Source: Anaeromyxobacteraceae bacterium
GTDB taxonomy: Bacteria; Myxococcota; Myxococcia; Myxococcales; Anaeromyxobacteraceae
Reading direction: 5' to 3'
DNA length: 30,741 nucleotides
Assembly (NCBI GenBank): GCA_027349605.1
Contig: DAIEMM010000130.1
Location: 1 to 30,741, forward strand
Shown: one piece after another, positions 6,147 to 27,628 of the stretch
Position numbering within the stretch: position 1 is the first letter of the stretch
How the letters are laid out: every line of letters starts with the position of its first letter
Notes under the pieces: generated by a model
Told to the model about the DNA's origin: nothing
Database searches by the model: none
What the model saw: the letters and a program-made list of their open reading frames with translations, nothing else
Program-made: the position numbers and the translations under genes

Positions 6147-6163
6147 CTCGACTGGTCACGGAG
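6139..6163. promoter_or_regulatory. Candidate sigma54-activator binding site (UAS A)
   Basis: TCGAGTGAC-TCGACTG-GTCACGGAG; perfect GTGAC-N7-GTCAC core; overlaps the acs stop codon; centre is 71 bp from the GG of the promoter at 6222. Confidence 0.55.
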
Positions 6164-6220
6164 TAGTTGGAAGGGCCACTCCAGGCTTGGTCAAGTGTGC
6201 GCAACCACGAGGCGCAGGCC

Positions 6221-6236
6221 TGGCTCGACGCATGCA
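6221..6236 (+). promoter_or_regulatory. Sigma54 -24/-12 promoter for small secreted protein P1
   Basis: TGGCTCGACGCATGCA (GG-N10-GC); 18/19 identical over 6220-6238 to 15210-15228. Confidence 0.65.
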
Positions 6237-6250
6237 CTGAACCCCTCCAT

Positions 6251-6295
6251 GCTCGGAGTGAGCGAAGGCGGCCGGCATCCGGCCCCGCACCGAGC
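6251..6295 (+). ncRNA. Structured 5-prime leader, copy 1 (candidate cis-regulatory RNA)
   Basis: GCTCGG-AGTG-AGCGAA-GG-C-GGCCGG-CAT-CCGGCC-CC-GCA-CCGAGC; same architecture as 15242-15284, with compensatory changes. Confidence 0.5.
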
Positions 6296-6311
6296 GGGAA
6301 AGGATGAGTTC

Positions 6312-6563
6312 ATGTCGAAGCGAATCGCATTGGCAGTGCTGATGTCGGTTCTGGCCGCGCCGGGTCTGGCAACCGAAGGCAATCAGCCGAGGGAGGCCTC
6401 CGAGGACCCCTCCACGAAGACACGCTCGAAGACCGTGTGCGTGTGCACCTTCGAAGGACGACCCGACCCGGCACGGTCGCATCCCTGTGCTCCGGTCCAG
6501 TCGGAGAAGACCGAGACCCGGAGCAACATCGACGAGCACCCCGAGGACTATCAGGCAGGCTGA
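6312..6563 (+). CDS. Small secreted CxC protein P1 (83 aa), uncharacterised
   Basis: ATG after AAAGGA; Sec-type signal MSKRIALAVLMSVLAAPGLA; mature part has VCVC plus HPC; has its own promoter. Confidence 0.65.
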   Translation: MSKRIALAVLMSVLAAPGLATEGNQPREASEDPSTKTRSKTVCVCTFEGRPDPARSHPCAPVQSEKTETRSNIDEHPEDYQAG

Positions 6564-6585
6564 CGGCGTCGACCGGCACCCAGCA

Positions 6586-6622
6586 AGGCCCTCCTCTCCG
6601 ATGACGCGAGGGAGGAGGGCCT
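6586..6622. terminator. Probable bidirectional terminator hairpin between convergent genes
   Basis: Perfect 11-bp inverted repeat AGGCCCTCCTC...GAGGAGGGCCT between the stops at 6563 (+) and 6622 (-). Confidence 0.5.
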
Positions 6623-6936
6623 CAGGGAGGGTCGTCATCGGTCGCTGCGTCCGTCCAGGCGTGCGGCACCACGTCGCCGAGCGACACACCGAGGTAGGCC
6701 AAGATCCGCACGTCACGCCGCGTGAGGCCGCGAACCCGAAACGTGCCACCCTCACGCTCGACGGCGCGCACGAGCAGAGTGACCGCGAAGATGTCGGGCT
6801 GCCGGCAGGCTCCGAAGTCCAGCATCACCACGCGCCCGCCGATGGCTCCCTCGATCTGACGGGCGACCCGCCACGCCTCGCTGACGTCGAAGTCCTGGGT
6901 CAGGGAAACGACCAAGCTGGATGCTCCATCACCCAC
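6622..6936 (-). CDS. STAS-like small protein (104 aa)
   Basis: GTG 6936, 10 nt after GGAGG; pattern LTQDFDVSEA...VVMLDFGACRQPDIFAVTLLV...RVRGL...VRILAYLG resembles STAS/anti-anti-sigma domains. Confidence 0.6.
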   Translation of the reverse strand: MGDGASSLVVSLTQDFDVSEAWRVARQIEGAIGGRVVMLDFGACRQPDIFAVTLLVRAVEREGGTFRVRGLTRRDVRILAYLGVSLGDVVPHAWTDAATDDDPP

Positions 6937-6953
6937 GGCGGCGGTACCTCCAT

Positions 6954-7379
6954 TCACAGCTCGGAAATCCCGAGCTCGCGCAGGCGTTGCCGGATCGTGC
7001 GAAGGCATCGCTCCTCGCACGCGTCGACGGGGAGTTCCACCTCGCCACGGTGCTCGACCCGGATGGCGACGAAGACCTCGTCCGAACCGGGGAGCACCTT
7101 GGAGTCGTAGAGCGAGCGATCGCAGGGCACGACCTCGATGCGAGTCTGGGCCACCTCCGGCGGGAGAGCCCAACGGACGACCTGCTCCAGTTCCTCGAGG
7201 AGCGGCCGACACTGGTCGCATCCCGGCATCGCATGTGCGGCCTTGTCGTGGACGCCCCAGACCCGCACCTCGAAGCCCACCGCCATGGGACGGTGGTCGC
7301 GATAGATGATGTCCGGGCGGACATCGAAGTGCACATGTCGGCGCTTGGCGAGGGCGCGAAGCTGCTGGAGGGTATCCAT
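6954..7379 (-). CDS. Hypothetical Cys/His-rich cytoplasmic protein (141 aa)
   Basis: ATG 7379 lies 7 nt after the upstream stop; HVH, PGCDQC and DACEERC motifs; operonic spacing. Confidence 0.7.
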   Translation of the reverse strand: MDTLQQLRALAKRRHVHFDVRPDIIYRDHRPMAVGFEVRVWGVHDKAAHAMPGCDQCRPLLEELEQVVRWALPPEVAQTRIEVVPCDRSLYDSKVLPGSDEVFVAIRVEHRGEVELPVDACEERCLRTIRQRLRELGISEL

Positions 7380-7386
7380 GTGTGCC

Positions 7387-7731
7387 TTACGGCGCCGGCG
7401 GACGCTTCTGGGTGGCTGGCTCGCCGGGACGCGCCAGCTGGATGGAAGTGGCCGTGACCACGCCGTCGACCTTCCTCCCGTGGACGACGGCGCGAAGGCC
7501 CGGGGCAATGTCCGCGGGCCTGGCGGCAACGCCTCCCAGGGTGATGCGCGTCTGCGGAGTCAATGCATAGCGCTGCTCGTGCCCGTCTCCGGTCCGCACG
7601 GTCACCTGCTTCGTGTCGGCAGAGAGGACTTCCCCGCGCATGTCGACGCCGCCCTCGTGCGCCGAGGCGGGGGTCGTGAGAATCAGCGCCGCGAGAAGAA
7701 AAGCAGGAGTGATCAGCGATGGCTTCGGCAT
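7387..7731 (-). CDS. Secreted beta-barrel (DUF5666-like) protein (114 aa)
   Basis: Signal peptide ending ASA followed by HEG (N-terminal His); RGEVLSAD...VTVRT...YALTPQTRI...DIAPGLRAVVHG...ATSIQL is a DUF5666-like repeat. Confidence 0.7.
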   Translation of the reverse strand: MPKPSLITPAFLLAALILTTPASAHEGGVDMRGEVLSADTKQVTVRTGDGHEQRYALTPQTRITLGGVAARPADIAPGLRAVVHGRKVDGVVTATSIQLARPGEPATQKRPPAP

Positions 7732-7750
7732 GTGGAGTCTCCGCGCTGCG

Positions 7751-8362
7751 TCAGTGGGAATGGTGGCTGTCCTTGGCTGGCCCAGCTGGAATTGATTGAA
7801 GGAACTCCTGGTCCTGCTGGAGCTCGCGCCACTCGCCGGGGCTCCTCGGGTTGAGCCGTTCCATCTCGAGGAGCTCCTCCGGTCCGAGACGCGGCAGGTG
7901 ACGGATGAAGAGCACCAGCTTCCAGCTGACCGCGGGAGACACCTCGCCGCCCCATCCGGGCATCCCGGTGAAGCGGATGCCATTCTCGATGACGTGGAAG
8001 AGCTCACCGTCGGTCAGGGACTGCGTGGCGGGAAGCCGCATGTCGGGAGCGCGAGGGTAGAGCCGTCGTCCCAGTGCCGTCTGCCCACTCCCGTCGTTAC
8101 CGTGACACGAGGCGCAGTGATCCGCGAAATGCGCTCGCGCCTCGACCAGCGTCTCGCGAGTCGAGGGAACGGGATTGACCTGGCTCCGGACCGCGGACGG
8201 GATCGCCACTCCGCGCACGAGGCGGGCGAGCCGGGCCTCGACGGCACCGGGCTCGTCCCGGGCGCTCAGTCCACTCTGCCGGACCGCCACGACCCCGAGA
8301 GCGAGCCCAGCCACCGCCAGGAGCCCGACGACGGCGAGGATTCGGTACCCGATCCGCAGCAT
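7751..8362 (-). CDS. Membrane-anchored monoheme c-type cytochrome (203 aa)
   Basis: N-terminal TM helix; HCASCHG heme motif; YPRAPD; LTDGELFHVIENGIRFTGMPGW (axial Met); C-terminal SHHSH. Confidence 0.85.
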   Translation of the reverse strand: MLRIGYRILAVVGLLAVAGLALGVVAVRQSGLSARDEPGAVEARLARLVRGVAIPSAVRSQVNPVPSTRETLVEARAHFADHCASCHGNDGSGQTALGRRLYPRAPDMRLPATQSLTDGELFHVIENGIRFTGMPGWGGEVSPAVSWKLVLFIRHLPRLGPEELLEMERLNPRSPGEWRELQQDQEFLQSIPAGPAKDSHHSH

Positions 8363-8390
8363 TCGAGGCTCGCTCGCGCCAGGGTGTCGA

Positions 8391-8906
8391 CTAAAGCGTC
8401 GACGTGCCCGGGTTGGAGGCGAGCCGAGCGGTCCGGGCGGCAGGCTGGAGTTGCTGGGCCCGGCGGAGAATCTCGGAAGCAACCGCGTCATCGGTCGAAC
8501 GAATCACGATGACGAATCGGCTTCCGTCGAAGCGAACACTGGCGGAGGCGCCCGGCACGAAGGCCGGGCAGGCGTTCATCCACGGCTCCTGTCGCGCCAT
8601 CGCCTCGGCGAGGTGGCAGTCGGCGATGCGCTGGAGTGCCTCGACCGAAAGTCCCGGCACCTGCCGAACGGAGATGATGGCGCCGCGCACGATCGGAAGG
8701 GCGCTGCTTCTCGAGACGCGGTAGCGCTGTTCGCGGAGCGCCGTCACCGACTCGACGTCCTCGGCGCGAACGAACAGGCTCATGTTGCGTTCGGCGTCGC
8801 TGAGGCCGGCGCACGCCTGGGCGGTGGTAGGGGGAGAGGGCGGTGCGCTCGCGGGAGAGCCAGAGACTGCGAGCGCGGCGGAACTAAGGATTGCGATGAG
8901 TTGCAT
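8391..8906 (-). CDS. Hypothetical secreted protein with three Cys (171 aa)
   Basis: ATG 8906 after GGAG; signal peptide MQLIAILSSAALAVSG; QAC, ADCH and ACP motifs; first gene after the sigma54 promoter at 8943-8958. Confidence 0.65.
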   Translation of the reverse strand: MQLIAILSSAALAVSGSPASAPPSPPTTAQACAGLSDAERNMSLFVRAEDVESVTALREQRYRVSRSSALPIVRGAIISVRQVPGLSVEALQRIADCHLAEAMARQEPWMNACPAFVPGASASVRFDGSRFVIVIRSTDDAVASEILRRAQQLQPAARTARLASNPGTSTL

Positions 8907-8942
8907 GGTGTGACTCCGGAAGGGGTGGACCAGCCTAGGTTC

Positions 8943-8958
8943 AGCAAGGTTCATGCCG
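8943..8958 (-). promoter_or_regulatory. Sigma54 promoter for the 8906-6622 operon
   Basis: CGGCATGAACCTTGCT (GG-N10-GC, consensus TTGCT). Confidence 0.65.
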
Positions 8959-9019
8959 TGGAGGCTTGGCCAAGGGTTCCGGGGCTTTCCCGGAGCAGAG
9001 GTCCCGAGCGTCTGGAACC

Positions 9020-9044
9020 TAATGTGACCGTGCCGGTTTCGCTG
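9020..9044. promoter_or_regulatory. Candidate activator binding site (UAS B)
   Basis: TAATGTGAC-CGTGCCG-GTTTCGCTG; the reverse strand reads CCACAGCG like the CCACAGTG of UAS C and E; centre is 75 bp from the promoter GG. Confidence 0.55.
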
Positions 9045-9083
9045 TGGGAAGCCCGGTGATCAAGAACGTCGCCGGGCCGGGCA

Positions 9084-10175
9084 TCAGACATCCTGCAGTT
9101 CCGCGACGGGGTCCCGGAGGGCCGCGGCGGCACCGGTCGGGAGCGCCGCCGCGATGCCAACGAGGGTCGCCGCGGCGATTGCCGAAGCCGCCAGCGGAAG
9201 AGCCGGGAGGACCGACGACGCGGCCCTGGCATCCAGGGCGAGTGTCGCGAGGGCGCCGAGCGCAAAGCCCACGACCCCGCCGGCCGCCCCGAGGGCCGCC
9301 GACCGCACCACCCCGGCCAGGGTGATGTCGTAGCCGGCTGCTCCGATCGCAACCAGCATGGCCACCTCGCGCCGACGCTCCTGGGCATCCAGGTGCGAGG
9401 CCACGGCCAGGCACAGGAGCGACACGATCCCCGTGACCCACCAGATGAGATGCCGGTGCGACGCCAGCGCATCCTGGGCCTCGCTCTCGACGACCGCCCC
9501 CCGGTCCGGACGCAGGACGGAGATGCCCGCCACCGAAATCTCGATGGCCGAGGCCACACTGGAGATGCTGGCGTCCGGGCGCAGGAAGAGGCGCAACTCC
9601 GTCGGCTGAACCTGCGCTTCCACTCGAGTCCGGGGCGCGGTCGGCAGGAAGGCAGCCGTGTCGTCCGCGTCCGCCCGCGACGGCAGGATCGTCGCGACCC
9701 GGTATGGCTCACCCAGGATCTCCACCATCTGGCCGGGCTGGACGCCCAGGGACGAGGCAAGGACCGGCCCGAGCGCGACCTCGCCGGCCAGGAGCACGGC
9801 GTCACCTCCCGACGTTGGCTCGACCCACATGACCAGGTTTCGCCTGCCGGCAACGGGGAGCCAAGCTACACGTCGTTGCTCGAGCGCGGCCAGGGCGGGG
9901 CCTGCCGTCCGTCGGACCGCCTCGACCGTGCCCGGTGGAAGAGCCGGTGAAGTCGTACCTTCCTGGACGATGGATTGCGGCGATGCGCCCGCCGGGAGGA
10001 TCCGTAGGGCCGGTCCAACGGCATCGAACTGGATCGCGATGGCCGCCTCCCTTGCGCGCGAGACCAGCTCGACGGTCACCGAGAGCGCAACCGCCGACGC
10101 CACCACCAGGACGGCGCCATAGGCCCGGCCGCGGCGGGAGAGGAGCTCGCGCAGGGCGAACCACATGATCGTCAC
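9084..10175 (-). CDS. MacB/FtsX-family ABC transporter permease (363 aa)
   Basis: N-terminal TM, large periplasmic domain, QERRREVAMLVAIGA motif, three C-terminal TMs, ALRDPVAELQDV end; start overlaps the ATPase stop (alternative ATG 10166). Confidence 0.8.
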   Translation of the reverse strand: MTIMWFALRELLSRRGRAYGAVLVVASAVALSVTVELVSRAREAAIAIQFDAVGPALRILPAGASPQSIVQEGTTSPALPPGTVEAVRRTAGPALAALEQRRVAWLPVAGRRNLVMWVEPTSGGDAVLLAGEVALGPVLASSLGVQPGQMVEILGEPYRVATILPSRADADDTAAFLPTAPRTRVEAQVQPTELRLFLRPDASISSVASAIEISVAGISVLRPDRGAVVESEAQDALASHRHLIWWVTGIVSLLCLAVASHLDAQERRREVAMLVAIGAAGYDITLAGVVRSAALGAAGGVVGFALGALATLALDARAASSVLPALPLAASAIAAATLVGIAAALPTGAAAALRDPVAELQDV

Positions 10176-10870
10176 GATGCGAGCCTCCGCAGCCGGCCTG
10201 GCCGGTCGTCGGTCACGCGCCCCGCGACGATCGAGACGATGCGGTGAGCCCGCTCGGCCAGAGCGGCGGAATGGGTGACGACGACGATGGTCTGTCCCTG
10301 GCCGTTGAACTCGGAGAGCAGATCGAGAAACTGGGTGCCGTTCGCGGAGTCGAGGCTGCCGGTGGGCTCGTCCGCGAGGAGGACCTTGGGCCGGTTCACG
10401 AGCGCCCGCCCGATCCCGACCCGCTGTCGCTCGCCCACGGAGAGCTGGGCGGGGTAGTGCCGGGCGCGCGCCACCATGCCGAGCTTCTCGAGCATGCCAT
10501 GGGCTAGGCTCCTCGCCTCGCGCCGTGACCGGCCCGCGAGCATCGCGGGGAACGCCACGTTGTCGACGACGTCGAGCCAGGGGACGAGATTGAACGTCTG
10601 GAAGACGAATCCGACCTCCGTCCGCCGCAGCGCGGCACGCCTCGACGGGCCGAGGGAATAGACGTCCGTGGCGCCCAGATGGACCTTGCCAGAGTCCGGC
10701 CCGGAGATCCCTCCGAGGGCGAAGAGAAGGCTCGACTTCCCGCTCCCGCTCGGCCCGACGACCGCAACGAATTCGCCCTCGTCGACCGACAGGGTCACCT
10801 CGTCGAGCGCCCGAACGGTCGATCCGTCGTCGGTCGTGAAGGTCTTGGTGATGTGGTCTGCGACGATCAT
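10172..10870 (-). CDS. LolD/MacB-type ABC ATP-binding protein (232 aa)
   Basis: GPSGSGKSS, GFVFQTFNL, LSVGERQRVGIGRAL, LLADEPTGSLD, VVTHS. Confidence 0.9.
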   Translation of the reverse strand: MIVADHITKTFTTDDGSTVRALDEVTLSVDEGEFVAVVGPSGSGKSSLLFALGGISGPDSGKVHLGATDVYSLGPSRRAALRRTEVGFVFQTFNLVPWLDVVDNVAFPAMLAGRSRREARSLAHGMLEKLGMVARARHYPAQLSVGERQRVGIGRALVNRPKVLLADEPTGSLDSANGTQFLDLLSEFNGQGQTIVVVTHSAALAERAHRIVSIVAGRVTDDRPGRLRRLAS

Positions 10871-10871
10871 G

Positions 10872-11969
10872 TCAGGACTCCCGAAGGACTTCGGAGGGAT
10901 CGAGTGCGACGGCGCGGCGCGTCGCCAGTGCAGCGGCCCCGGCGGCCACCAGACCAGCACCGATGACCGCGAAAGCGAACAGGTCGAGGGACGGGGATGC
11001 GGCAGCTCCAAGCGTGCGCGCGGAGAGCCAGCGGGTCGCCGGGATGGCAGTGAGGTACCCGGCCACTCCGCCGGCGATTCCGGACAGCCCAGCCGACGCG
11101 ACGAAGAGCGCCGCGACGACGGAGGGCGAGACCCCGATCGCCGCGAGCAATCCGAGGTCGCGCCGTGCCCTGCGCGCCTGCGCGGAGACGAGCGCGGCGA
11201 CGAGGCCGGCGACCGTCAGGGATCCAGCGATCAGGAGGGCCATGGCGTAGCGCCCCATCGTCGCGACCGCTCCCTTCTGGGCCTTCACCACGCCAGCGAC
11301 CGTGATCGCCCGGGAGCCGGGGAGGATGCGCTCCACCTCCTTCCCGAGCGCGGCCACGTCGATTCGGCACCAGCAACCAGCGAGTCGCAGGGCGTTGATG
11401 GCACCGGGCTGGCCGAGGACTTGCTGGGCCGTGACGAGGGGAACCAGGATCGCGTCCTCGAGGCCATCGGGCGGGCGGTCCATCACGCCCGCGACGGAGA
11501 GGCTGGCACCGTTGAGCTCGATGATGGAACCAGGCCGGAAACCGAGCCGGCCCGCCGCGGAAGGAGACAGCATGGCGGGCGCCGTCCCCACCACCGGCGA
11601 CCGGGGCCAGCTTCCCTCCTCGCCCACGAGGAGGACGTCCCGCCCACCGACGACCACGTGCCCGTACAGCCTGGCCTGGCTCCCGCGGATGTCCGAGGCG
11701 ATCTCGGACGACTTCAGGATGACCGGTGAGGCGTCGGGGAGCACCGACGGCCCGTACCGCTGCAGGTGAAAGTCACCAACGTCCTGGTCCCTGGGCAAGA
11801 CCAGCATGTTCGACCCGAGCCGGTGGGCCAGGTCATGGATGGCGCCATCAGCGGACGACGTCACCGCTCTCTGGGCGACGAGGGCCGCCACGATGAGGGC
11901 GACTGCCAGCGCGACGAGCGCGTACTCGCCCCAACGCACTCGTAGATACGCGAAAGTGATCCTGATCAT
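10872..11969 (-). CDS. MacB/FtsX-family ABC transporter permease with periplasmic CWC motif (365 aa)
   Basis: LGSNMLVLP after TM1, RRDLGLLAAIG motif, LDPSEVLRES end; periplasmic LRLAGCWCRID. Confidence 0.8.
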   Translation of the reverse strand: MIRITFAYLRVRWGEYALVALAVALIVAALVAQRAVTSSADGAIHDLAHRLGSNMLVLPRDQDVGDFHLQRYGPSVLPDASPVILKSSEIASDIRGSQARLYGHVVVGGRDVLLVGEEGSWPRSPVVGTAPAMLSPSAAGRLGFRPGSIIELNGASLSVAGVMDRPPDGLEDAILVPLVTAQQVLGQPGAINALRLAGCWCRIDVAALGKEVERILPGSRAITVAGVVKAQKGAVATMGRYAMALLIAGSLTVAGLVAALVSAQARRARRDLGLLAAIGVSPSVVAALFVASAGLSGIAGGVAGYLTAIPATRWLSARTLGAAASPSLDLFAFAVIGAGLVAAGAAALATRRAVALDPSEVLRES

Positions 11970-12016
11970 TCAGGCGTGCCCCCGGTCCGATGTGCTCGCA
12001 TTCGACGATGCGACGA

Positions 12017-12032
12017 TGCATGGGGCGGGCCG
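12017..12032 (-). promoter_or_regulatory. Sigma54 promoter for the ABC operon
   Basis: CGGCCCGCCCCATGCA (GG-N10-GC); 93 bp from the UAS C centre. Confidence 0.5.
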
Positions 12033-12111
12033 GAGCGGTCGCAATGACGTTTTCCCGCCATTCCTCGTCATACCCGCCGTCTTCAGGACGAAGTGGCCGA
12101 GCCGGCCGCCA

Positions 12112-12136
12112 CAGTGTGACGTTGCTGGTCACGCTG
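12112..12136. promoter_or_regulatory. Candidate activator binding site (UAS C)
   Basis: CAGTGTGAC-GTTGCTG-GTCACGCTG; the extended CGCCACAGTGTGA-N8-GTCACGCTGG is shared exactly with UAS E. Confidence 0.75.
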
Positions 12137-12195
12137 GTGCGGTCCCGATAGAGCGGAGCCTCCTGTGCTCGTGTGCTCAAGCCGGGAAGGCAGGA

Positions 12196-12211
12196 GGGCA
12201 CGCAAACTGCA
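12196..12211 (+). promoter_or_regulatory. Sigma54 promoter for the 12225-13133 genes
   Basis: GGGCACGCAAACTGCA; 73 bp from the UAS C centre. Confidence 0.6.
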
Positions 12212-12224
12212 GAAGCATGTTCCT

Positions 12225-12683
12225 GTGAGCGAACGAACAAGAGAGGCGGCGACCGAACCAGGACTCCCCGACCCAGGCGGATGCGCATTCGGCCCAGGGT
12301 TCTTTCTTGGTCAGCTCCGGGCGTTCGCGCGTGAAAGGTGTCCCGACCCAGCGGAGGGGCTACCGTCCGTGTCGGTCCACCTCGCCACGGGCGAGGTGCT
12401 GTCACTGTGTCACGTGGCAGGGCTCGCCCCGTGCTTCGTCGCACTCGTAATCCGTGAGGCAGACCGTGGCGACGGGCGAATGGCCACCGAGCTCGTCCCT
12501 TACTCGCTCATCACGCGCGTGACCATCCGAGCCGCGACCGGGGCAGATCGCCATGTGGGGTTCGACGCCACCCATGTGCCGCACATCCTCTCCGGGCGAC
12601 GCCCTCTCAGTCCGGAGGCGACCCTTCGAAGGGTGGCCATGCCTCCCGGAGTCGCTACCGTGGTGGAAGAAGACCGCGAGTAA
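12225..12683 (+). CDS. Hypothetical Cys-containing cytoplasmic protein (about 152 aa)
   Basis: GTG 12225 chosen because the ORF-track start 12165 lies upstream of the promoter; GCAFGPGFFLG, RCPDPAE, LCHV and ELVPYSLITRV look protein-like. Confidence 0.65.
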   Translation: MSERTREAATEPGLPDPGGCAFGPGFFLGQLRAFARERCPDPAEGLPSVSVHLATGEVLSLCHVAGLAPCFVALVIREADRGDGRMATELVPYSLITRVTIRAATGADRHVGFDATHVPHILSGRRPLSPEATLRRVAMPPGVATVVEEDRE

Positions 12684-12698
12684 GCGGAGGCAAGGCGA

Positions 12699-13133
12699 AT
12701 GAGTGGCCCGCGACTCCTAGTCCTCGGCGAGAAGCCACGACGAATCCTAGCCACCGCGCTGGGGCGCTCCTGGGAGATCACGGTCGCCCATGACGGCAGC
12801 GAGGCCCTGACGCTGCTCGCCGCCGAGTCTTTCGACGTTGCTTTCCTCGCGGATGAAGGCGGCGCACAGCACATCGATGCCGACTTCGTCCAGGCTGCGC
12901 ATCAAGTCGCTCCCGAGACCGAGATCGTCACCGTGTCCCATCTCCGTCTGGGATCGTGGCTTCCCGGGGAATGCCCGCCAGATGTCTACGGATTCCTGAC
13001 CTGGCCGCTCGATTCCGAACTCGTGGTGCGAACCCTTCGGGGTGCGGTCGAGCGTCGACGATTGCGCGCGGAGATCGAGTATCTGCGCGCCGAGCTTCGA
13101 CGGAGAGTTGGAATTCGAGACGTGGCCTCGTGA
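12699..13133 (+). CDS. Atypical (pseudo) receiver domain with NtrC-type coiled-coil linker (144 aa)
   Basis: RBS GGAGG; AHDGSEALTLL..ESFDV pattern; acidic pocket, phospho-Asp and Lys replaced (FLTWP); ends AVERRRLRAEIEYLRAEL. Confidence 0.7.
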   Translation: MSGPRLLVLGEKPRRILATALGRSWEITVAHDGSEALTLLAAESFDVAFLADEGGAQHIDADFVQAAHQVAPETEIVTVSHLRLGSWLPGECPPDVYGFLTWPLDSELVVRTLRGAVERRRLRAEIEYLRAELRRRVGIRDVAS

Positions 13134-13197
13134 GTCGGGCGCCCAGGGTTCATGGACCTAGCTAGCCGGCAATCCGGGTGCTGGAGCATTGGAGACT

Positions 13198-13259
13198 CCC
13201 GGCTGCCTGCTCGAACCATGAAGCGGGGGGGGGATGACATGGCGAGCAGGCGAGCCGGG
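13198..13259 (-). ncRNA. Long hairpin with C9-containing loop downstream of an orphan sigma54 promoter (candidate sRNA)
   Basis: On the + strand: CCCGGCT-GCCTGCTCG-AA-CCATG [17-nt loop with G9] CATGG-CGAGCAGGC-G-AGCCGGG, i.e. 21 bp paired. Confidence 0.4.
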
Positions 13260-13300
13260 CGAGGTCGGGTTCAACCGGCCCCACTGCATGAAAATCAAGA

Positions 13301-13316
13301 AGCACGATGCGTGCCA
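13301..13316 (-). promoter_or_regulatory. Near-consensus sigma54 promoter with no convincing downstream CDS
   Basis: TGGCACGCATCGTGCT; 94 bp from the UAS D centre. Confidence 0.6.
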
Positions 13317-13396
13317 TGTCGGCCCCAGCGTGGGCGAGTCAAGGATTGCCGGGATCGCGATGTCCGGGGGATGAGAGCAAGCGTCCGCAACAGTCA

Positions 13397-13421
13397 CGGC
13401 GTGACTGAGGGGGTTACACGG
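13397..13421. promoter_or_regulatory. Candidate activator binding site (UAS D)
   Basis: CGGCGTGAC-TGAGGGG-GTTACACGG; GCGTGACTGAGG is repeated at 13448-13459 as an extra half-site. Confidence 0.6.
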
Positions 13422-13469
13422 GGCGGTAGCGGCAACTCGTCAATGGAGCGTGACTGAGGAGCCGATGGA

Positions 13470-14540
13470 ATGGACGTCGGAACAGTTGGCGAAGGGACCA
13501 TCATGCAACAGACTGCGAGACGAAGGATCGCGTTCGTGCTGGGTGGCGGCGCCGCTCGCGGGCTGGCCCACATCGGGGTGCTGGAGGTGCTCGAGCGCGA
13601 GGGAATCCCCGTTGACTACCTGGTGGGGAGCAGCATGGGCGGCCTCATCGCGGCGCTGCACGCTTCCGGATTGAGGGCCGCGGAGATCGCCGAGGTGGCA
13701 TCGCACTTCCGATTTCCGCCTTGGTTCGTTCCGGGGTGGACGTTGTCCTGGGAGAGAATCTTCCCGTCTGCAGCAACCGAACTGGCGGGACTCACATTCA
13801 ACGAGGCCTTTCGCCCGATGGCCCTGGTCGCGGTCGACGTCGAGAGCGGGAAGCAGGTCGTGCTCAGGTCCGGGGAGCTTCTACCCGCCGTCAAGGCGAC
13901 GTGCGCGGTGCCGGGGGTATTGCCCCCCGTCGAGATCGGAGGGCGATGGCTCATCGACGGAGGGCTGGTGAACCTCCTCCCCGTTGACGTCGCCCAGATG
14001 TTCGACCCTGGGGTGATCGTCGCCGTGAAGGTGGGCGCGCAGCGATCCCGGACGATGCCCCGTTTGCACGAAGGAACGGAGACTCTGACCGAGTGGGTAG
14101 CGAGGATCGTTCCCAGCCCCTGGAGTGCTCGCCGAAGCTTCGAGCTGCTCGTCCGCGGGGCCGAGATCGCCCTCGATCGGCAATACACCTTGGCGGCGGC
14201 CATGGTGGGGCCAGACGTGCTCGTCGAGATAGACGTCGGGACCATGGGATTGCGGGACTTCCACCGACTCGACGAGGCCGTTCGAGCAGGACGGCGAGCC
14301 GCGGAAGCGGCCCTGGCGCGCCTGTTCGAGGCGATCGAGTCCGCGAACGAGGACACCGCACCTGCCTGCGCCATTCGAGATCTGATCTTCGACCCGATTT
14401 GCGAGATGGTCATCACCGCTGGCCGGGCCCGGGCGACGCTCGATTGCAGGGGCAGGACGTTCTACTTCTGTTCGGCCAACTGCCGCGACGAGTTCGCGAG
14501 GGGTCTGCACCGCCTGGATGACCCGTCGACGAGTGGGTGA
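13470..14540 (+). CDS. Patatin-like phospholipase fused to a C-terminal YHS/TRASH domain
   Basis: GGGAARG oxyanion motif, GSSMG nucleophile, DGG; C-terminus DPICEM...RATLDCRGRTFYFCSANCRDEF; start 13470 or 13503. Confidence 0.85.
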   Translation: MDVGTVGEGTIMQQTARRRIAFVLGGGAARGLAHIGVLEVLEREGIPVDYLVGSSMGGLIAALHASGLRAAEIAEVASHFRFPPWFVPGWTLSWERIFPSAATELAGLTFNEAFRPMALVAVDVESGKQVVLRSGELLPAVKATCAVPGVLPPVEIGGRWLIDGGLVNLLPVDVAQMFDPGVIVAVKVGAQRSRTMPRLHEGTETLTEWVARIVPSPWSARRSFELLVRGAEIALDRQYTLAAAMVGPDVLVEIDVGTMGLRDFHRLDEAVRAGRRAAEAALARLFEAIESANEDTAPACAIRDLIFDPICEMVITAGRARATLDCRGRTFYFCSANCRDEFARGLHRLDDPSTSG

Positions 14541-14559
14541 CGGTGCCCCCGTTTGGTCG

Positions 14560-14928
14560 TCACTCGACGACGACCGTGCCGCCGATCGAGTCCTTCGGGC
14601 AGGCGTAGCGGATCGTCCCGCTTTCCTCGGCCTTGAGCGCCACGGCTACTGGCTCATCCTTTGGCAGTTCCCGGACGAGTCCAAGATATCTGATGACGAC
14701 GGCGGTCGCACAGGTGTGATCTACGGTGCGTGTGAACACCAGCCTGATGTTCTCCCCCTTCTTCACGTGGATCTCCGAGGGGACGAATCCGCTGGAGTCG
14801 ACCGTGACCTTGACGATTCGCGGTCGGGGTGTCCAGGGATCCTGGATGGGGTGGAACTGTGCAAGCGCGGGGCTCGCCGCGAAGAGTGTATATGCAGCCC
14901 CGAGCGTGTACCAGGTCTTCTTGCGCAT
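14560..14928 (-). CDS. Secreted cupredoxin-domain protein (CupA-like), Met ligands absent
   Basis: Signal peptide; VTVDSSGFVPSEIHVKKGENIRLVFTR..DHTCAT..; YACPKDSIGG instead of FACxMxM; start 14928 or 14934. Confidence 0.8.
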   Translation of the reverse strand: MRKKTWYTLGAAYTLFAASPALAQFHPIQDPWTPRPRIVKVTVDSSGFVPSEIHVKKGENIRLVFTRTVDHTCATAVVIRYLGLVRELPKDEPVAVALKAEESGTIRYACPKDSIGGTVVVE

Positions 14929-14988
14929 CGTCATCCCCTGCCTGTCTGTGGGTTCTTGGTGGAGTGGAACCGTATGTGGCCATGCCTG

Positions 14989-15004
14989 TGCAGGGCGCGT
15001 GCCG
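14989..15004 (-). promoter_or_regulatory. Sigma54 promoter for the island cupredoxin
   Basis: CGGCACGCGCCCTGCA; 115 bp from the UAS E centre. Confidence 0.6.
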
Positions 15005-15105
15005 TCGCGGGTGAGAAGATGGCGATGCCGCCGCTCCCAGGAAAACCCGACGTCGAACTGGATGAAGGCACCTGGGATTCCACGAGGTGAAGTGTTCAAA
15101 CGCCA

Positions 15106-15130
15106 CAGTGTGATGGCGGACGTCACGCTG
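15106..15130. promoter_or_regulatory. Candidate activator binding site (UAS E)
   Basis: CAGTGTGAT-GGCGGAC-GTCACGCTG, located between divergent sigma54 promoters. Confidence 0.75.
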
Positions 15131-15210
15131 GGCGCGCTCAGGCCTTCGCGGTCAGGTTCCGAACGGGGCTGGGTACGGTTCGACCGACCTCGCGGGCGAT
15201 GGCCGCCCGC

Positions 15211-15226
15211 TGGCGCGACGCATGCA
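15211..15226 (+). promoter_or_regulatory. Sigma54 promoter for small secreted protein P2 (possibly also HD-GYP)
   Basis: TGGCGCGACGCATGCA; 94 bp from the UAS E centre; near-identical to 6221-6236. Confidence 0.65.
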
Positions 15227-15241
15227 CTCTCACCTCTTGGC

Positions 15242-15284
15242 CTCAGCAAGTGCCAAGGAGACCGGCATCCGGTCCCATGCTGAG
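15242..15284 (+). ncRNA. Structured 5-prime leader, copy 2 (candidate cis-regulatory RNA)
   Basis: CTCAGCA-AGTG-CCAA-GG-A-GACCGG-CAT-CCGGTC-CC-A-TGCTGAG. Confidence 0.5.
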
Positions 15285-15301
15285 CGTGCGAGGACGCGCC
15301 A

Positions 15302-15586
15302 ATGACTCTGCGAATCGTCGGAGCGGTACTGATTGGAGCCCTGTCGACACCGGGGCTGGCATGGGGAGACGGGGGAGGAGGGGGAGGGGCTCGTGAATTC
15401 GCGGGCCCGCTGAGGCCAACGGAGGTGGTCGGGGTCCCGCTCTCCAGGAGCGAAGCGAGCCCCACCTGCAGATGCATGATGGCGGAACCGCACGACGCCA
15501 CCCCGGACAAGTCGTCCGCCAGCTCAAAGCCCCCTGAAGGGGGTGAACGGGCTACGGGCCGGGGCCACGTCGAGGAGCATCACTGA
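15302..15586 (+). CDS. Small secreted CxC protein P2 (94 aa), uncharacterised
   Basis: Signal MTLRIVGAVLIGALSTPGLA resembles P1; poly-Gly; TCRCMM; C-terminal HVEEHH. Confidence 0.65.
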   Translation: MTLRIVGAVLIGALSTPGLAWGDGGGGGGAREFAGPLRPTEVVGVPLSRSEASPTCRCMMAEPHDATPDKSSASSKPPEGGERATGRGHVEEHH

Positions 15587-15664
15587 ACCAGATCTTGATC
15601 GTATTCGCCGGGGTACGACGCATCGCGCGCCGGTGAAGCGTCACCCTGGCTCGAGAGGTACCCG

Positions 15665-16630
15665 ATGCCTGTCCTTCAAGACGTGACGAATGCGTCTCGC
15701 AAGGGCTACTGGATCGTAGCGAGTTTCGCGGTGATCGGGTTCGCCCACCTCGCGGTGGGGAACGCTACCCACGCACAGCACCTCGTTCATCTGGTGTTTG
15801 GTGCGGCGTACCTGCTGCCCATCGTTGCCGCTGCCGCCTGGCTCGGTGCCCGTCCAGCTCTCCTGCTCAGCGCGGCTTCGGCGGCGACGTACCTGCTGCA
15901 CGCCAGGACCATCAGCGGTAACGGACCCATGGGGATCGCCAACGCGCTCGTGCTGTCCGCCGTGTTCCTGTTCGTCGGAGTGGTGTCGGCCACGCTCGTC
16001 GCGACGGCCGACCGCGAGCGGCGAGTTCGGCTCGACGGGGAAAGGACCGCGCAGCGCGATGCCATGATGCAGGCGCTCGCCAGCCTTTCGGGTGCTCTCC
16101 GGCAGCGGGACGATGGGACAGCCGCCCACTGCGAGCGTGTGGCGTGCATCGCGGCACGCGTTGGCGCGACCCTCGGGCTGTCAGAGGAGCGGCTCCAGGT
16201 GCTCCACCTCGCGGCGCTCGTCCATGACGTTGGGAAGACCGGCGTCCGTGACGACGTACTCCTGAAGCCGGGAGAGCTGACTGCGGAGGAGCGTGGCCGG
16301 ATCGAGCGGCACACGGTCCTTGCAGCCGAAATCCTGCGGCCCATAAGGGGGGCCGAGGAGATTGCCGAGATCGTCTTGTGTCACCACGAGTGTCCCGACG
16401 GGAGCGGATACCCTAGACGGTTACACGGCAACCAGATCCCGGCCCTTGCCGGAGTACTGCGCGTCGCTGACGTGTTCGCGGCCTTGGTCGAACCCCGTGC
16501 GTACAAGGTTCCGATGCGCCCGGAGGAGGCTGTCTCCCGGATGAGCTCGCTCCAAGGAAGGCTCGATCCGGACGGGTTCGCGGCACTGCAGCGCCTCGTG
16601 GCCGCCGATACTCCGGGCGATCTGGCATGA
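15665..16630 (+). CDS. Membrane-bound HD-GYP phosphodiesterase (probable c-di-GMP PDE)
   Basis: About 4 N-terminal TMs; HCERV, LVHDVGK, HHECPDGSGYP, ADVFAAL..PRAYK; RBS GAGG. Confidence 0.85.
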   Translation: MPVLQDVTNASRKGYWIVASFAVIGFAHLAVGNATHAQHLVHLVFGAAYLLPIVAAAAWLGARPALLLSAASAATYLLHARTISGNGPMGIANALVLSAVFLFVGVVSATLVATADRERRVRLDGERTAQRDAMMQALASLSGALRQRDDGTAAHCERVACIAARVGATLGLSEERLQVLHLAALVHDVGKTGVRDDVLLKPGELTAEERGRIERHTVLAAEILRPIRGAEEIAEIVLCHHECPDGSGYPRRLHGNQIPALAGVLRVADVFAALVEPRAYKVPMRPEEAVSRMSSLQGRLDPDGFAALQRLVAADTPGDLA

Positions 16631-16748
16631 CACCCCGGGAACGAGACGTCGGCGACGGTCGACGGGTCGCTGGAAACGAGGTGAAGACCATCGGGGACGC
16701 AGCGTGGCTGCGCCGCCCCTTGCTCGACTAGCCATTCCCCACGGGGGG

Positions 16749-17114
16749 TCAGCTCGTCTGTGGCGAAGCGGTGCTCCCGGAATCTGGCGCGTTGGGCCTC
16801 GCATCGGCTCCGGCCACGCACTCGCATTTCGCGGTCGAATGACCAGCAGCAGTGCCCGTCACGCTGGGATGCGACACGCGGGGCGTAATGATGTCGGCGA
16901 AAAAGGTGACCGGCGGGACGACGGTGATGAACAGGACCGCCATCGTGCCCAGCAAGGCGCCCGGCCCGGTCCAGGAGGATGCCGCGATGGTGGAACCAGT
17001 GTTCTGTGCGGGAGATGCCACGGTTCCATCGGTGCTCGTCGCCGCCTTCGGAAGCGGAGTGCCTGTGTAGGATGCGGCGTTGGCGACAGCTCGCATGTAT
17101 CTGGCTACGTTCAT
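16749..17114 (-). CDS. Hypothetical 121-aa single-TM protein with KCEC motif
   Basis: Start overlaps the DoxX stop (ATGA), suggesting translational coupling; hydrophobic segment followed by CxC; otherwise low complexity. Confidence 0.4.
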   Translation of the reverse strand: MNVARYMRAVANAASYTGTPLPKAATSTDGTVASPAQNTGSTIAASSWTGPGALLGTMAVLFITVVPPVTFFADIITPRVSHPSVTGTAAGHSTAKCECVAGADARPNAPDSGSTASPQTS

Positions 17115-17662
17115 TGGATGGTCGCTCCTGGGTGGTTGGACAGAGTTCGTCTGACTTGCGATGGGTGCTTCCTACGGCGAGTGGTGGAAACGGCGGGTGG
17201 ATCAGGCTCCTCGTGGCGCGCGGAAGACGGGAGGACGTGAGCGGCTGCGACAAGCCCACATGCGAGCCCGACCAGAATGTCGGCCGGGGAACCTTGGCCG
17301 AACGGGCTCCCCTGGAGAACCAACGGGGAGACCTGCGTCAGGGCCAGTATGGCGGCCGCCAGAGGCGTGAGCCGGGGCCAGAAGCCGCTCGCGGCCGGGA
17401 TGACGATCAAGAGAGCCCCCGCCACCTCCATCCAACCGGCCCAGGCGAGCGCTCCGTCGGCCACTCCCACGCCCAATCGGAATACCTGTCGAAGGATCTC
17501 GGGCTTGATGCCCGCCTTGAGGAGACCGGGCACGAGCAGGACGATGGCGAGTTCCCACTGCAAGAGCCAGAGAATGCTCGTTCTCCCCTCCTGCCCGTTC
17601 CACGCGCGCTCGGCGGGGGCCCTCGGGGCGGCAAGATCGGACGCGTCCGCGAAGGGGATCAT
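17111..17662 (-). CDS. DoxX-like membrane protein
   Basis: ILWLLQWELAIVLLVPGLLK...GWMEVAGALLIVIPAASGFWPRLTPLAAAILAL matches the DoxX-like pattern; start uncertain (ATG 17662 or ACG 17581). Confidence 0.7.
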   Translation of the reverse strand: MIPFADASDLAAPRAPAERAWNGQEGRTSILWLLQWELAIVLLVPGLLKAGIKPEILRQVFRLGVGVADGALAWAGWMEVAGALLIVIPAASGFWPRLTPLAAAILALTQVSPLVLQGSPFGQGSPADILVGLACGLVAAAHVLPSSARHEEPDPPAVSTTRRRKHPSQVRRTLSNHPGATIQ

Positions 17663-17675
17663 TGCCCCGATGCGG

Positions 17676-17691
17676 TGCAATGGGCTTGCCA
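17676..17691 (-). promoter_or_regulatory. Sigma54 promoter for doxX
   Basis: TGGCAAGCCCATTGCA, near consensus; only GTCAC half-sites upstream (17788, 17808). Confidence 0.6.
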
Positions 17692-17933
17692 ATCCATCGG
17701 GGAATCAACTTGAGCCTCGATGGGCGCCTTTCACGCGGTCGTCTTCACGACGCCGCGCCAGGACCCCGCACCTTCGGCCAGACCTCCGTCACTCGGGAAG
17801 CCACCCCGTCACTGGACGAGTCTCGTTCCTTGGGCATGCGGAGAGGCTCCGCGCGGGCAGTCCTGAGCGCCCAGCACCTTCCAACCTGCCAAGTTCCACG
17901 ACTTCCACACGGCTCAGCGACTCGCGACACAGA

Positions 17934-17949
17934 CGGCACAGCGGATGCA
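17934..17949 (+). promoter_or_regulatory. Sigma54 promoter for the receiver gene at 18028
   Basis: CGGCACAGCGGATGCA, divergent from the doxX promoter. Confidence 0.5.
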
Positions 17950-18027
17950 AATTGGCCACATGAACACGATGCGCCAGGCGGTACCGCGCTTTCGCGCGGG
18001 TCGCGGCCTGCGCTCCGAGGCGATGCA

Positions 18028-18498
18028 ATGACACGCATCCGTGTACTGGTGGCGGACGACGATCTGGACCAGAGGGCTCTCTGGACTGGAATCCTGCAGG
18101 GGGAGTTCGAGGCGGACGTCGTGACGGTCAACGACGGTGTGACCGCGATCAAATGCCTCTGCGAAGAGGGCTTCGATCTCGTCGTCGTCAATCACGACGT
18201 CCCGCTCGTTTCGGGCATGGACATACTCAGATACGTCCGAGCGAGATGGCCCTGGCTCCCGTTCCTCCTTCCGGCGAGAAGGGCCTCCCCGGTCGTTCGC
18301 ACCGAGGCGCGCCGCCTGGGCGCTCACGTGATCGCCAAGCCATTTGGAGCCGGTTACGCCGCCCGGTTGCTCGCCGTCGCAGCCTCGCGTCGGTCCCGCG
18401 GCAGGCCGCCATCGCGGGCCGATACCCGCTTCCGCAGGCACGTCGCGCCTGCCGAGGGATCGCAGAGGTGTGCACCGACGCGGCATGACAGCGCATGA
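18028..18498 (+). CDS. Stand-alone receiver domain lacking the phospho-acceptor Asp (156 aa)
   Basis: VLVADDD, DGVTAI, FDLVVVNHDVP (Asp to Asn), AKPF; Arg-rich tail. Confidence 0.75.
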   Translation: MTRIRVLVADDDLDQRALWTGILQGEFEADVVTVNDGVTAIKCLCEEGFDLVVVNHDVPLVSGMDILRYVRARWPWLPFLLPARRASPVVRTEARRLGAHVIAKPFGAGYAARLLAVAASRRSRGRPPSRADTRFRRHVAPAEGSQRCAPTRHDSA

Positions 18499-18525
18499 CG
18501 CTGCTCCGCCACGTCCCTGCCTGGA

Positions 18526-20289: not shown

Positions 20290-20299
20290 GGAGTTCCTT

Positions 20300-21661: not shown

Positions 21662-21900
21662 ATGATTCCCCAGAGGCGAGAGTACTCGAGCACGATCTGG
21701 AACTCCGGATCCCGGAAGCCGTGCCCTCGGAGATACGCCTTCGCCGCATGGGCCTCGACCGTCTCGGAGGAGAAGGAGACGTGCTGGCGCTTGCGATGCA
21801 CCCGGAAGCCGATCGCCTGGAGCGCGCCGGCCAGCTCGTTCACCCGGGGCTCCGCCAGCTCTCCGGCAGGGCTCACCGTCGTGACGTGGGAGACCATCAC
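21658..21900 (-). CDS. Small hypothetical protein (79-80 aa), translationally coupled
   Basis: Start overlaps the YeiH stop (GTGATG) and its stop overlaps the cysG start (ATGA). Confidence 0.7.
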   Translation of the reverse strand: MMVSHVTTVSPAGELAEPRVNELAGALQAIGFRVHRKRQHVSFSSETVEAHAAKAYLRGHGFRDPEFQIVLEYSRLWGIM

Positions 21901-23237: not shown

Positions 23238-23251
23238 GGCGGCTTCCTCGA

Positions 23252-26930: not shown

Positions 26931-26946
26931 TCAGTCATTCCGTTAC

Positions 26947-26962
26947 AGCAAGAGTTACGCCT
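26947..26962 (-). promoter_or_regulatory. Sigma54 promoter for the kinase/regulator operon (autoregulation)
   Basis: AGGCGTAACTCTTGCT; 75 bp from the UAS F centre. Confidence 0.55.
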
Positions 26963-27023
26963 GCGCTCGATGGACCGAAAATCAGCTACTTGGCGACCCG
27001 GATGGGACAGCTAGCCGCTCCGG

Positions 27024-27048
27024 GGGCGTGACCGTGATGGTGACAGTG
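27024..27048. promoter_or_regulatory. Candidate activator binding site (UAS F)
   Basis: GGGCGTGAC-CGTGATG-GTGACAGTG (7/9 per arm) between the regulator operon and the efflux operon. Confidence 0.6.
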
Positions 27049-27151
27049 TAATGCAGCAGATCGAAGGCGGAGTGCCGTGTCTGAAGGAGTCGAACGCTCG
27101 ATCTCCTGAAATGCCAGAGGCTTGGGTTGATGAGCCCCGCCGCCCGTGATT

Positions 27152-27618: not shown

Positions 27619-27628
27619 GAGGAACGCC

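Follow-up and report, generated by a model that had tools for sequence, protein, structure and literature searches.

In Myxococcus xanthus, copper induction of MXAN_3421, cuoA and copA depends on the two-component system CorSR, which controls the curA operon (MXAN_3413-3421); this operon includes genes for a His-rich cupredoxin_1 protein and a PF13442 cytochrome c (MXAN_3414, syntenic with copper genes in other bacteria), and the gene that follows the cytochrome c (PMC3707914). We analysed a stretch of 30,741 nt from an Anaeromyxobacteraceae bacterium (hereafter the window), which is the 30.7-kb contig C196 and makes up 1.2% of a metagenome-assembled genome (MAG, G000; 2.54 Mb in 514 contigs, 74% complete, 68% G+C). 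Within it lies a 12-kb block of genes (6312-18498) that a preliminary description had put forward as an undescribed copper-response module wired to a CorSR-like system. The CorSR-like pair and a cusCBA operon are located outside this block, and a sulfite reductase/cysG/yeiH/osmC cluster devoid of the regulatory box described below is present between them. Our analysis indicates that most of the block is probably a lineage-specific expansion of the CorSR regulon. To our knowledge, CorSR is among the few sigma-54-dependent metal sensors, and we found neither a published CorR DNA site nor a published CorSR regulon beyond the one M. xanthus operon.

The window shares with M. xanthus CorSR the kinase architecture, an NtrC-type regulator and several sigma-54 promoters. 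However, the curA regulon is a single nine-gene operon with the multicopper oxidase CuoA and the P-type ATPase CopA as effectors, whereas here at least nine promoters are spread over 21 kb and CusCBA takes the place of these effectors; in addition to what the curA operon has, there is a LolCDE-like ATP-binding cassette (ABC) transporter with a CWC motif, a pair of a 141-aa protein and a STAS protein, an HD-GYP protein, and small CxC peptides. With E. coli ZraSR-ZraP, the locus has in common a periplasm-sensing type of kinase, an NtrC-type regulator, divergent, apparently autoregulated promoters, and small periplasmic His-rich products, but the pair falls below the NCBIfam cut-offs (160.8 against 479 for ZraS and 382.8 against 760 for ZraR) and the targets differ. 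E. coli CusCFBA/CusRS is similar in its outer-membrane factor, CusB-type adaptor, CusA-type resistance-nodulation-division (RND) pump and two-component control; unlike in E. coli, the regulator here is of the sigma-54-dependent NtrC type and not of the OmpR type, and a CupA-like cupredoxin stands in the chaperone position of CusF, which is absent here. This cupredoxin (cupredoxin-2) resembles S. pneumoniae CupA and the N-terminal domain of CopA (PDB 2MRY/4F2E, 4F2F) in its fold and ligand set. CupA is a membrane-anchored partner of CopA, whereas the cupredoxins here appear to be secreted to a Gram-negative periplasm, with the cupredoxin-2 gene ahead of cusCBA.

In a promoter scan of the window, we found that the palindrome GTGAC-N7-GTCAC recurs upstream of TGGCAC-N5-TTGCW sites that precede genes. 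A weight matrix built from 27 boxes, all of them from relatives, has the consensus YGTGACCG-N3-CGGTCACR and, at 14 bits or more, finds 35 boxes in the MAG, seven of which are on this contig against 0.42 expected. Counting every box with no more than one mismatch that has a GG-N10-GC site 40-140 bp downstream gave 11 pairs in the MAG, seven of these on the contig; a slight relaxation of the promoter pattern brought the number on the contig to nine, their boxes lying 50-140 bp upstream of GG-N10-GC. A strict GG-N10-GC is present on 8 of the 12 sides of six boxes, where about 0.24 matches are expected from the genome-wide density of 0.39 per kb, and the ninth promoter, that of corS, appears after relaxing the first base. 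The genome also has rpoN. This architecture of box and promoter is far beyond chance. Most transcription units of the block are wired in this way, in agreement with the preliminary statement that most units sit behind an upstream activating sequence and a sigma-54 promoter, and the proposed co-regulation with cusCBA is upheld in that the same type of box and promoter precedes the cupredoxin-2-cusCBA genes. Strong boxes in contigs C168, C241 and C272 were treated as chance, being inside coding regions with no promoter nearby.

The genes of the window, called with a codon model trained on the long open reading frames (ORFs) of the MAG and annotated with Pfam and NCBIfam, are the following.

Left flank: PALP+CBS enzyme, ssu-type ABC importer and acetyl-CoA synthetase (acs).
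6312-6563, plus strand: P1, an 83-aa secreted protein with CVC; small secreted CxC family, paralogue of P2; weak codon score.
6622-6915, minus strand: STAS protein, fifth gene of the five-gene operon (6622-8906).
6954-7379, minus strand: 141-aa CxxC/CxxxC protein (CDQC and CEERC), fourth gene of the operon.
7387-7731, minus strand: DUF5666 protein, third gene; signal peptide ending in ASA, mature protein starting with the His of HEGG.
7751-8362, minus strand: membrane-anchored monohaem cytochrome c, second gene; CASCH motif and SHHSH end.
8391-8906, minus strand: 171-aa secreted protein, first transcribed gene of the operon.
9084-10175, minus strand: second FtsX permease of the ABC operon (9084-11969; Pfam, NCBIfam).
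10172-10870, minus strand: ABC ATPase of the same operon (Pfam, NCBIfam).
10872-11969, minus strand: MacB_PCD/FtsX permease with periplasmic GCWC, same operon (Pfam, NCBIfam).
Start 12225 or 12369, end 12683, plus strand: conserved ORF, function unassigned; homologues behind box and promoter.
12699-13133, plus strand: degenerate receiver-like protein (pseudo-receiver); no Pfam match, low codon score.
13470-14540, plus strand: patatin-like lipase (Pfam Patatin, 5.5e-25) with a C-terminal YHS/TRASH-like Cys motif.
14560-14934, minus strand: cupredoxin-1 (Cupredoxin_1, CupA-like; Pfam, alignment).
15302-15586, plus strand: P2, secreted, with CRC and an HVEEHH tail; 78 nt before the HD-GYP gene.
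15665-16630, plus strand: predicted membrane HD-GYP phosphodiesterase (HD_5 at 3.7e-32).
16749-17114, minus strand: 121-aa ORF with CEC; doubtful membership, poor codon score.
17111 to about 17650, minus strand: DoxX_2 protein; doubtful membership.
18028-18498, plus strand: receiver-only protein (REC); doubtful membership.
18526-23782, minus strand: sulfite reductase, cysG, 80-aa ORF, yeiH and osmC; 5.5-kb cluster, no box.
24064-25467, minus strand: corR (REC, sigma-54 AAA+, HTH_8; Pfam).
25464-26930, minus strand: corS (transmembrane segment, helical His-rich periplasmic domain, HAMP, HisKA, HATPase).
27202-30741, plus strand: cupredoxin-2, cusC, cusB (with HMBD) and the first 97 codons of cusA, within which the contig ends.

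The control elements, from the weight matrix (boxes) and the promoter scan, are these.

6036-6058 (15.9 bits, inside the 3' end of acs) and 6140-6162 (14.2 bits): two CorR-type boxes before P1; an exact GTGAC-N7-GTCAC lies at 6143.
6221-6236, plus strand: sigma-54-type -24/-12 promoter of P1, TGGCTCGACGCATGCA.
8943-8958, minus strand: promoter of the five-gene operon, CGGCATGAACCTTGCT, with a box at 9021-9043 (17.7 bits).
12017-12032, minus strand: promoter of the ABC operon, in the divergent control region 12017-12211.
12113-12135: top-scoring box of the contig (23.2 bits), between the ABC and conserved-ORF promoters.
12196-12211, plus strand: sigma-54-type promoter of the conserved ORF and the pseudo-receiver.
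13301-13316, minus strand: promoter of an orphan pair, TGGCACGCATCGTGCT, the best sigma-54 consensus of the contig, with a box at 13398-13420 (16.8 bits).
14989-15004, minus strand: promoter of cupredoxin-1, in the divergent control region 14989-15226.
15107-15129: box between cupredoxin-1 and P2 (17.9 bits).
15211-15226, plus strand: sigma-54-type promoter of P2 and probably also of the HD-GYP gene.
17676-17691, minus strand, and 17934-17949, plus strand: sigma-54-like matches without a box before DoxX and REC, respectively.
26947-26962, minus strand: promoter of corS, in the divergent control region 26947-27167.
27025-27047: box between corS and cupredoxin-2 (20.1 bits).
27152-27167, plus strand: sigma-54-type promoter of cupredoxin-2-cusCBA.

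No credible ORF was found downstream of the orphan promoter (13134-13469), which is aimed at the 3' end of the pseudo-receiver gene and could drive an antisense or small RNA. As for leaders, the corS start codon is 12-31 nt past the -12 element in all orthologues (26928-26962 in the window; L034, L057, L127, L118 and L119), and the corS mRNA leader would therefore be very short or absent. P1 and P2 have leaders of 64 nt each (regions 6237-6311 and 15227-15301), and these share a 15-nt element, CCGGCATCCGG(C/T)CCC, about 30 nt ahead of the start codon.

The kinase consists of an N-terminal transmembrane/signal segment, a periplasmic sensor, HAMP, HisKA and HATPase_c (Pfam), and its 488-aa form with the N-terminal transmembrane segment is backed by orthologue alignments that start at residues 2-10; the regulator matches Response_reg (3.5e-27), Sigma54_activat (8.9e-69) and HTH_8 (2.5e-05). 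We measured orthology against the curA-type operons of two 9-Mb Myxococcaceae genomes (L118 and L119), and M. xanthus was matched by its published operon layout. The L118 operon encodes, according to Pfam, a multicopper oxidase, a HAMP kinase, a sigma-54 regulator, a beta-propeller protein, DUF305 and a P-type ATPase with YHS and HMBD, and ends with a PF13442 cytochrome c followed directly by DUF5666; its gene order is that of the M. xanthus curA operon (Table 1 of PMC3707914). The operon-end homologues of the Myxococcaceae are about 50% (cytochrome c) and 34% (DUF5666) identical to those of the window. The window kinase is 52-53% identical to the L118 kinase (52-57% over the L118 and L119 kinases), and the regulator is 66% identical to the curA-type regulator, the next-best response regulator being at 45%. 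Kinase and regulator are both reciprocal best hits of the curA-type pair, the recognition helices of the HTH are nearly identical, and a box with a promoter also precedes corS in L118 and L119. Judged by sequence, the window pair is orthologous to CorS and CorR, and the CorSR-like nature given to it earlier stands up to the reciprocal comparison of the kinase. We infer from this that the candidate box is the site of CorR; a term search of PMC3707914 gave no CorR binding site, and its Figure S2 covers promoters only. A second corS-corR pair, divergent from cusC-cusB, was found on contig C188 of the same genome (L126:1-4715); its proteins are 60% (kinase), 78% (regulator), 63% (CusB) and 55% (CusC) identical to those of the window, and the pair comes with a box (13.6 bits at 2607) and a sigma-54 promoter (2537, minus strand) of its own. 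The two CorSR-cus systems may cross-talk.

We then compared the locus with relatives: genomes of the same order were searched with DNA and protein, the relatives' loci were queried by tblastn with every window protein, and a wider neighbourhood search was anchored on the cytochrome c. In G017, G120, G023 and L038-L057, pairs of box and promoter stand upstream of corS, cusC, macB and the cupredoxin, cytochrome c and small CxC genes; a similar macB promoter is present in L009, L011, L041, L043 and L055, and homologues of the conserved ORF (51-59% identical) are behind the same box and promoter in L010 and L039. Synteny recurs as well. A genome of another genus (G120) carries the ABC operon, DUF5666-cytochrome c, two cupredoxins, the 141-aa gene, STAS, osmC-yeiH-cysG-sulfite reductase, HD-GYP, corR, corS, cusCBA and CBS, the HD-GYP orthologue (66%) being directly after corR, and G017 has a cupredoxin, DUF5666, cytochrome c, corR, and corS divergent from cusCBA. 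Arrangements similar to these two are found in L055, L057, L038 and L043, while G015 has cusBA and then the cytochrome c and the ABC operon. The 141-aa family is present in 15 of 121 genomes of the order, with cus or the cytochrome c in 6 of 10 loci around its gene. Within the genus, corS is found in 12 of 13 genomes (59-64% identity), and in G001 a regulator 83% identical stands alongside one box and cusCBA. The recurring core thus comprises cytochrome c-DUF5666-141-aa-STAS, the ABC transporter, cupredoxins, HD-GYP and small CxC proteins; a fixed 12-kb module, as first proposed, is not what relatives show, for only this core recurs. The sulfite reductase-cysG-80-aa-yeiH(-osmC) genes adjoin corSR or cytochrome c genes in at least four genera (the window, L024, L010, L127), with CBS and ssu nearby. 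We rejected this cluster as part of the regulon, as no box precedes it and it lies beside corSR through ancestral synteny (G021, G120, G023); a functional tie between cysteine supply and copper stress is possible.

By analogy with described systems, copper or silver is the likely signal. The syntenic CusA orthologue of G120, whose N-terminus is 82% identical to that of the window, is far closer to E. coli CusA (1024 bits) than to ZneA (456 bits), and M573, M623 and M672 (E. coli numbering) are conserved in it. The operon has the domains HlyD_D23, HMBD, CusB_dom_1 (CusB-type adaptor) and OEP (outer-membrane factor), the NCBIfam match to the CusB subfamily being, at 204.7 bits, below the cut-off of 390. 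In CupA, the Cys...Cys-x-Met-x-Met residues form a binuclear Cu(I) site. Cupredoxin-2 (27202-27618) matches S. pneumoniae CupA (PDB 2MRY/4F2E) with E=3e-13, keeps these residues and has a His-rich N-terminus; in cupredoxin-1, the one inside the block, the two Cys remain and the two Met of CxMxM are lost (YACPKDS). As noted in the preliminary description, 6312-18498 is without a Pfam match to a P1B-ATPase, multicopper oxidase or CopC/D. Contig C311 (L122:2106-12994), however, carries a multicopper oxidase, DUF6515, a P-type ATPase and an RND pump, and the 'missing' classical genes therefore exist elsewhere in the genome; the same contig has a box (4886) and a sigma-54 promoter (4975, TGGCAGGCACCTTGCA) before a 176-aa protein (no Pfam match) and a radical-SAM enzyme.

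Conceivably, the same wiring could answer to a signal other than copper, either another soft metal (Ag, Au, Cd, Zn) or periplasmic thiol/redox stress linked to sulfur metabolism. The copper ligand of CorS is a presumed one, in several genera the island has genes of sulfur assimilation around it (CBS, ssuABC, sulfite reductase, cysG, yeiH), its CxC/CWC thiols and cytochrome c would also suit thiol-redox chemistry, and NCBIfam puts the pair near ZraSR/AtoSC, with all scores below cut-offs. Nevertheless, no box precedes the sulfur cluster, and copper is the inducer of the orthologous system in M. xanthus (PMC3707914). The Met triad for Cu(I)/Ag(I) is found in the CusA orthologue, which resembles CusA far more than ZneA, and the Cu(I) ligands of CupA are kept in cupredoxin-2. 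We consider such a signal unlikely.

With regard to the products of the block, the listed ligand motifs (CxC, CxxC, SHHSH, HVEEHH, the His-rich HD-GYP, the N-terminal His, the cupredoxin) are all present in the sequence, but to ascribe ligands to nearly every gene was an overstatement: STAS, the ATPase, the second permease, the pseudo-receiver, REC and DoxX are without a conserved ligand motif. His is not enriched in the block (2.33% against 2.17% of background), Cys is so only slightly (1.17% against 0.81%, with 2,715 proteins as background; p=0.03), and four of the 17 block proteins tested (a set without the 121-aa ORF) have a CxC motif, against 1.5-4.7% of background proteins. Ligand residues of several products are conserved. 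The periplasmic GCWC of the permease is unchanged in all nine homologues aligned, whose overall identity is 46-54%. The mature N-terminal His of DUF5666 is found in 12 of 12 homologues, curA-type copies included, often with a second His 3-5 residues on. The cytochrome c has its nearest match in the monohaem ActE subunit of alternative complex III, and the last residue is His in each of the five homologues readable to the C-terminus. The 141-aa protein has CxxC in 8 of 10 homologues and CxxxC in about half; its model has a predicted local distance difference test (pLDDT) score of 90, its structure matches include only uncharacterised AlphaFold clusters, with no PDB match at E<=0.001 and nothing named in an Atlas search, and we propose that it is a cytoplasmic 4-Cys protein. 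The AlphaFold entries A7HHN8 and Q2IDN7 among the matches suggest that its gene is present in sequenced Anaeromyxobacter strains. PDB sequence searches likewise gave no match for the CWC permease (E<=0.01) or for DUF5666. The ABC transporter is like LolCDE in having two FtsX-type permeases (one MacB_PCD) and one ATPase; since the ATPase is separate, the permeases are two and the operon has no adaptor, its layout is LolCDE-like and not that of MacAB. It differs from LolCDE/MacB type VII transporters in the invariant periplasmic GCWC, the CorR-type box upstream and the lack of an adjacent MacA-type adaptor.

P1 and P2 are weak paralogues (E=4e-4), both with a PGLA signal-peptidase site. Among the products of 56 box-promoter pairs screened in the loci of relatives and the window, 14 are small, secreted and non-cupredoxin, and nine of these, from six genomes, have a single C-terminal CxC (ACHCA, ACHCP, DCACK, PCTCS, ACDCA, ACSCK, ACACL, VCVCT, TCRCM), against 1.5% of small background proteins, and this is therefore not chance. 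A small CxC protein is predicted to be disordered (pLDDT 0.39) and matches only unnamed Atlas clusters, all below 0.9. Two other small secreted products behind boxes are His/Met-rich and without CxC (L041:6840 and L034:11731, both on the plus strand; e.g., AAHEHAAAMNMGKDHRD repeats), and are reminiscent of periplasmic metal sponges of the SilE/PcoE type. The HD-GYP protein has the motifs VHDVGK and GSGYPRRL and four His in its first membrane segment. Several products thus combine an envelope location with conserved metal-type ligands, which is the part of the envelope module proposed earlier that stands. For the YHS domain ascribed to the patatin lipase, a Cys pattern is there (the protein ends DPICEM...FYFCSANC, which aligns with a YHS segment in L035), but Pfam YHS (PF04945) scores 22.5 bits, below its cut-off of 30.3.

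A wider reading would take the whole 12 kb as one co-regulated module, including the patatin-YHS gene, DoxX and the 121-aa ORF, REC and the pseudo-receiver. These genes are adjacent, sigma-54-like matches precede DoxX and REC, the patatin protein has the YHS-like motif, and the DoxX stop and the start of the 121-aa ORF overlap in ATGA (17111-17114), which suggests translational coupling of the two. Yet the DoxX/REC intergenic region has no box of 7 bits or more in the weight matrix, no sigma-54 promoter was found upstream of the patatin-YHS gene, and codon scores are low. In the CorSR/cus loci of relatives, matches to the pseudo-receiver all fall on the receiver domain of corR; matches to REC and patatin are scarce and mostly from Acidobacteriota, and DoxX and the 121-aa ORF have none. 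A box-like sequence at 17787, noticed by eye with two mismatches, was rejected since it scores below 7 bits, and DoxX and REC were rejected as regulon members, having a promoter-like match and no box. The pseudo-receiver is about 30% identical to the N-termini of CorR, and REC reads as having Asn in place of the expected phospho-acceptor Asp (VVVNHDVP); both may be decaying duplicates or decoys. A single module of this extent is quite unlikely, and we regard patatin-YHS, DoxX/121-aa ORF and REC as apparent neighbours and not demonstrated members, the pseudo-receiver probably likewise. That motifs and boxes are coincidental in a GC-rich accessory region of unrelated neighbouring genes is highly improbable, for although the genome has 68% G+C, Cys/His composition is barely off background, the genome abounds in short palindromes (153 matches when one mismatch is allowed) and the strong boxes in C168, C241 and C272 lie inside genes, the joint enrichment of box and promoter, the wiring kept across two families, the recurrent synteny and the invariant ligand residues all speak against it.

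Several points weigh against the CorSR regulon as the explanation of the block, or narrow it. Binding of CorR to the box is read from position and conservation only, and the C188 regulator could act on the same boxes. PMC3707914 gave no zinc, silver, cadmium or nickel in a term search, and the copper signal of the window CorS is taken from orthology. The window cusA is cut after 97 codons, and the Met triad was read in the orthologue instead. P2, the pseudo-receiver, REC, DoxX and the 121-aa ORF form a periphery with little conservation and poor codon scores, and some of these genes may be decaying or untranslated. Six same-genus genomes sampled, which have corSR-cusCBA, gave no match to the cytochrome c or to the 141-aa gene; this makes the block an accessory one, within which age and function may vary from part to part. 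The neighbourhood co-occurrence anticipated in the preliminary description takes the form of synteny with CorSR and cus in Myxococcota, whereas the wider cytochrome c family, mostly of Acidobacteriota, has cus within 10 kb in only about 8 of 80 loci; the link between the cytochrome c and cus is strong in Myxococcota and not universal. With regard to samples, the best-matching public sequencing run is a mine drainage metagenome, and identical fragments of the block (window 6000-19000) are present in other mine-drainage, sediment and soil samples; such error-free contigs in other metagenomes indicate that the block is not an artefact of one assembly. A run labelled metatranscriptomic is a whole-genome amplification library, indistinguishable from DNA, and its identical contigs (6560-6776, 8163-8376, 14327-14647, 15693-15846 and 16479-16645) were not used as evidence.

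If most of the block is indeed an expanded CorSR regulon, CorS would sense the periplasm and phosphorylate CorR, and CorR, as an NtrC-type enhancer-binding protein, would bind YGTGACCG-N3-CGGTCACR and switch on the nine promoters of the contig. As the corS promoter is itself behind a box, corSR would be autoregulated. Among the putative targets, the CupA-like protein would serve as a periplasmic Cu(I) chaperone and CusCBA would then carry out Cu(I)/Ag(I) efflux, the HD-GYP phosphodiesterase could couple the response to cyclic di-GMP, and the products jointly would bind, redox-handle and expel periplasmic Cu(I). As a bolder and rather unlikely proposal, the CxC peptides and the CWC ABC transporter might form an unrecognised thiolate route for periplasmic Cu(I), with the cytochrome c and the His1-DUF5666 protein (that with the mature N-terminal His) replacing the multicopper oxidase. 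In such a route, Cu(I) captured by the disordered peptides would pass by thiol exchange to the CWC of the transporter or to the CupA-like chaperone. What the transporter extracts would be either the metal or the loaded peptide, and the membrane cytochrome c and His1-DUF5666 would act as source or sink of electrons.

The block was called undescribed, which holds for part of it: cupredoxin, cytochrome c and DUF5666 were already published in 2013 as parts of the CorSR regulon, in the curA operon (PMC3707914). New are the candidate CorR box and the dispersed, CusCBA-centred form of the regulon; the CWC ABC permease, the C-terminal CxC peptides and the putative 4-Cys protein as unstudied ligand-bearing parts; and the predicted periplasmic CupA-like chaperones encoded ahead of cusCBA, a position held by CusF in E. 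coli. The candidate box would be a means to predict CorSR regulons across Myxococcota, and the locus gives a short list of unstudied envelope proteins (His1-DUF5666, the CWC permease and the CxC peptides), to which the 4-Cys protein without a PDB match can be added. The expansion is found in a mine-drainage genome, with sampled congeners that have corSR-cusCBA only, and growth of the regulon under metal stress is plausible.

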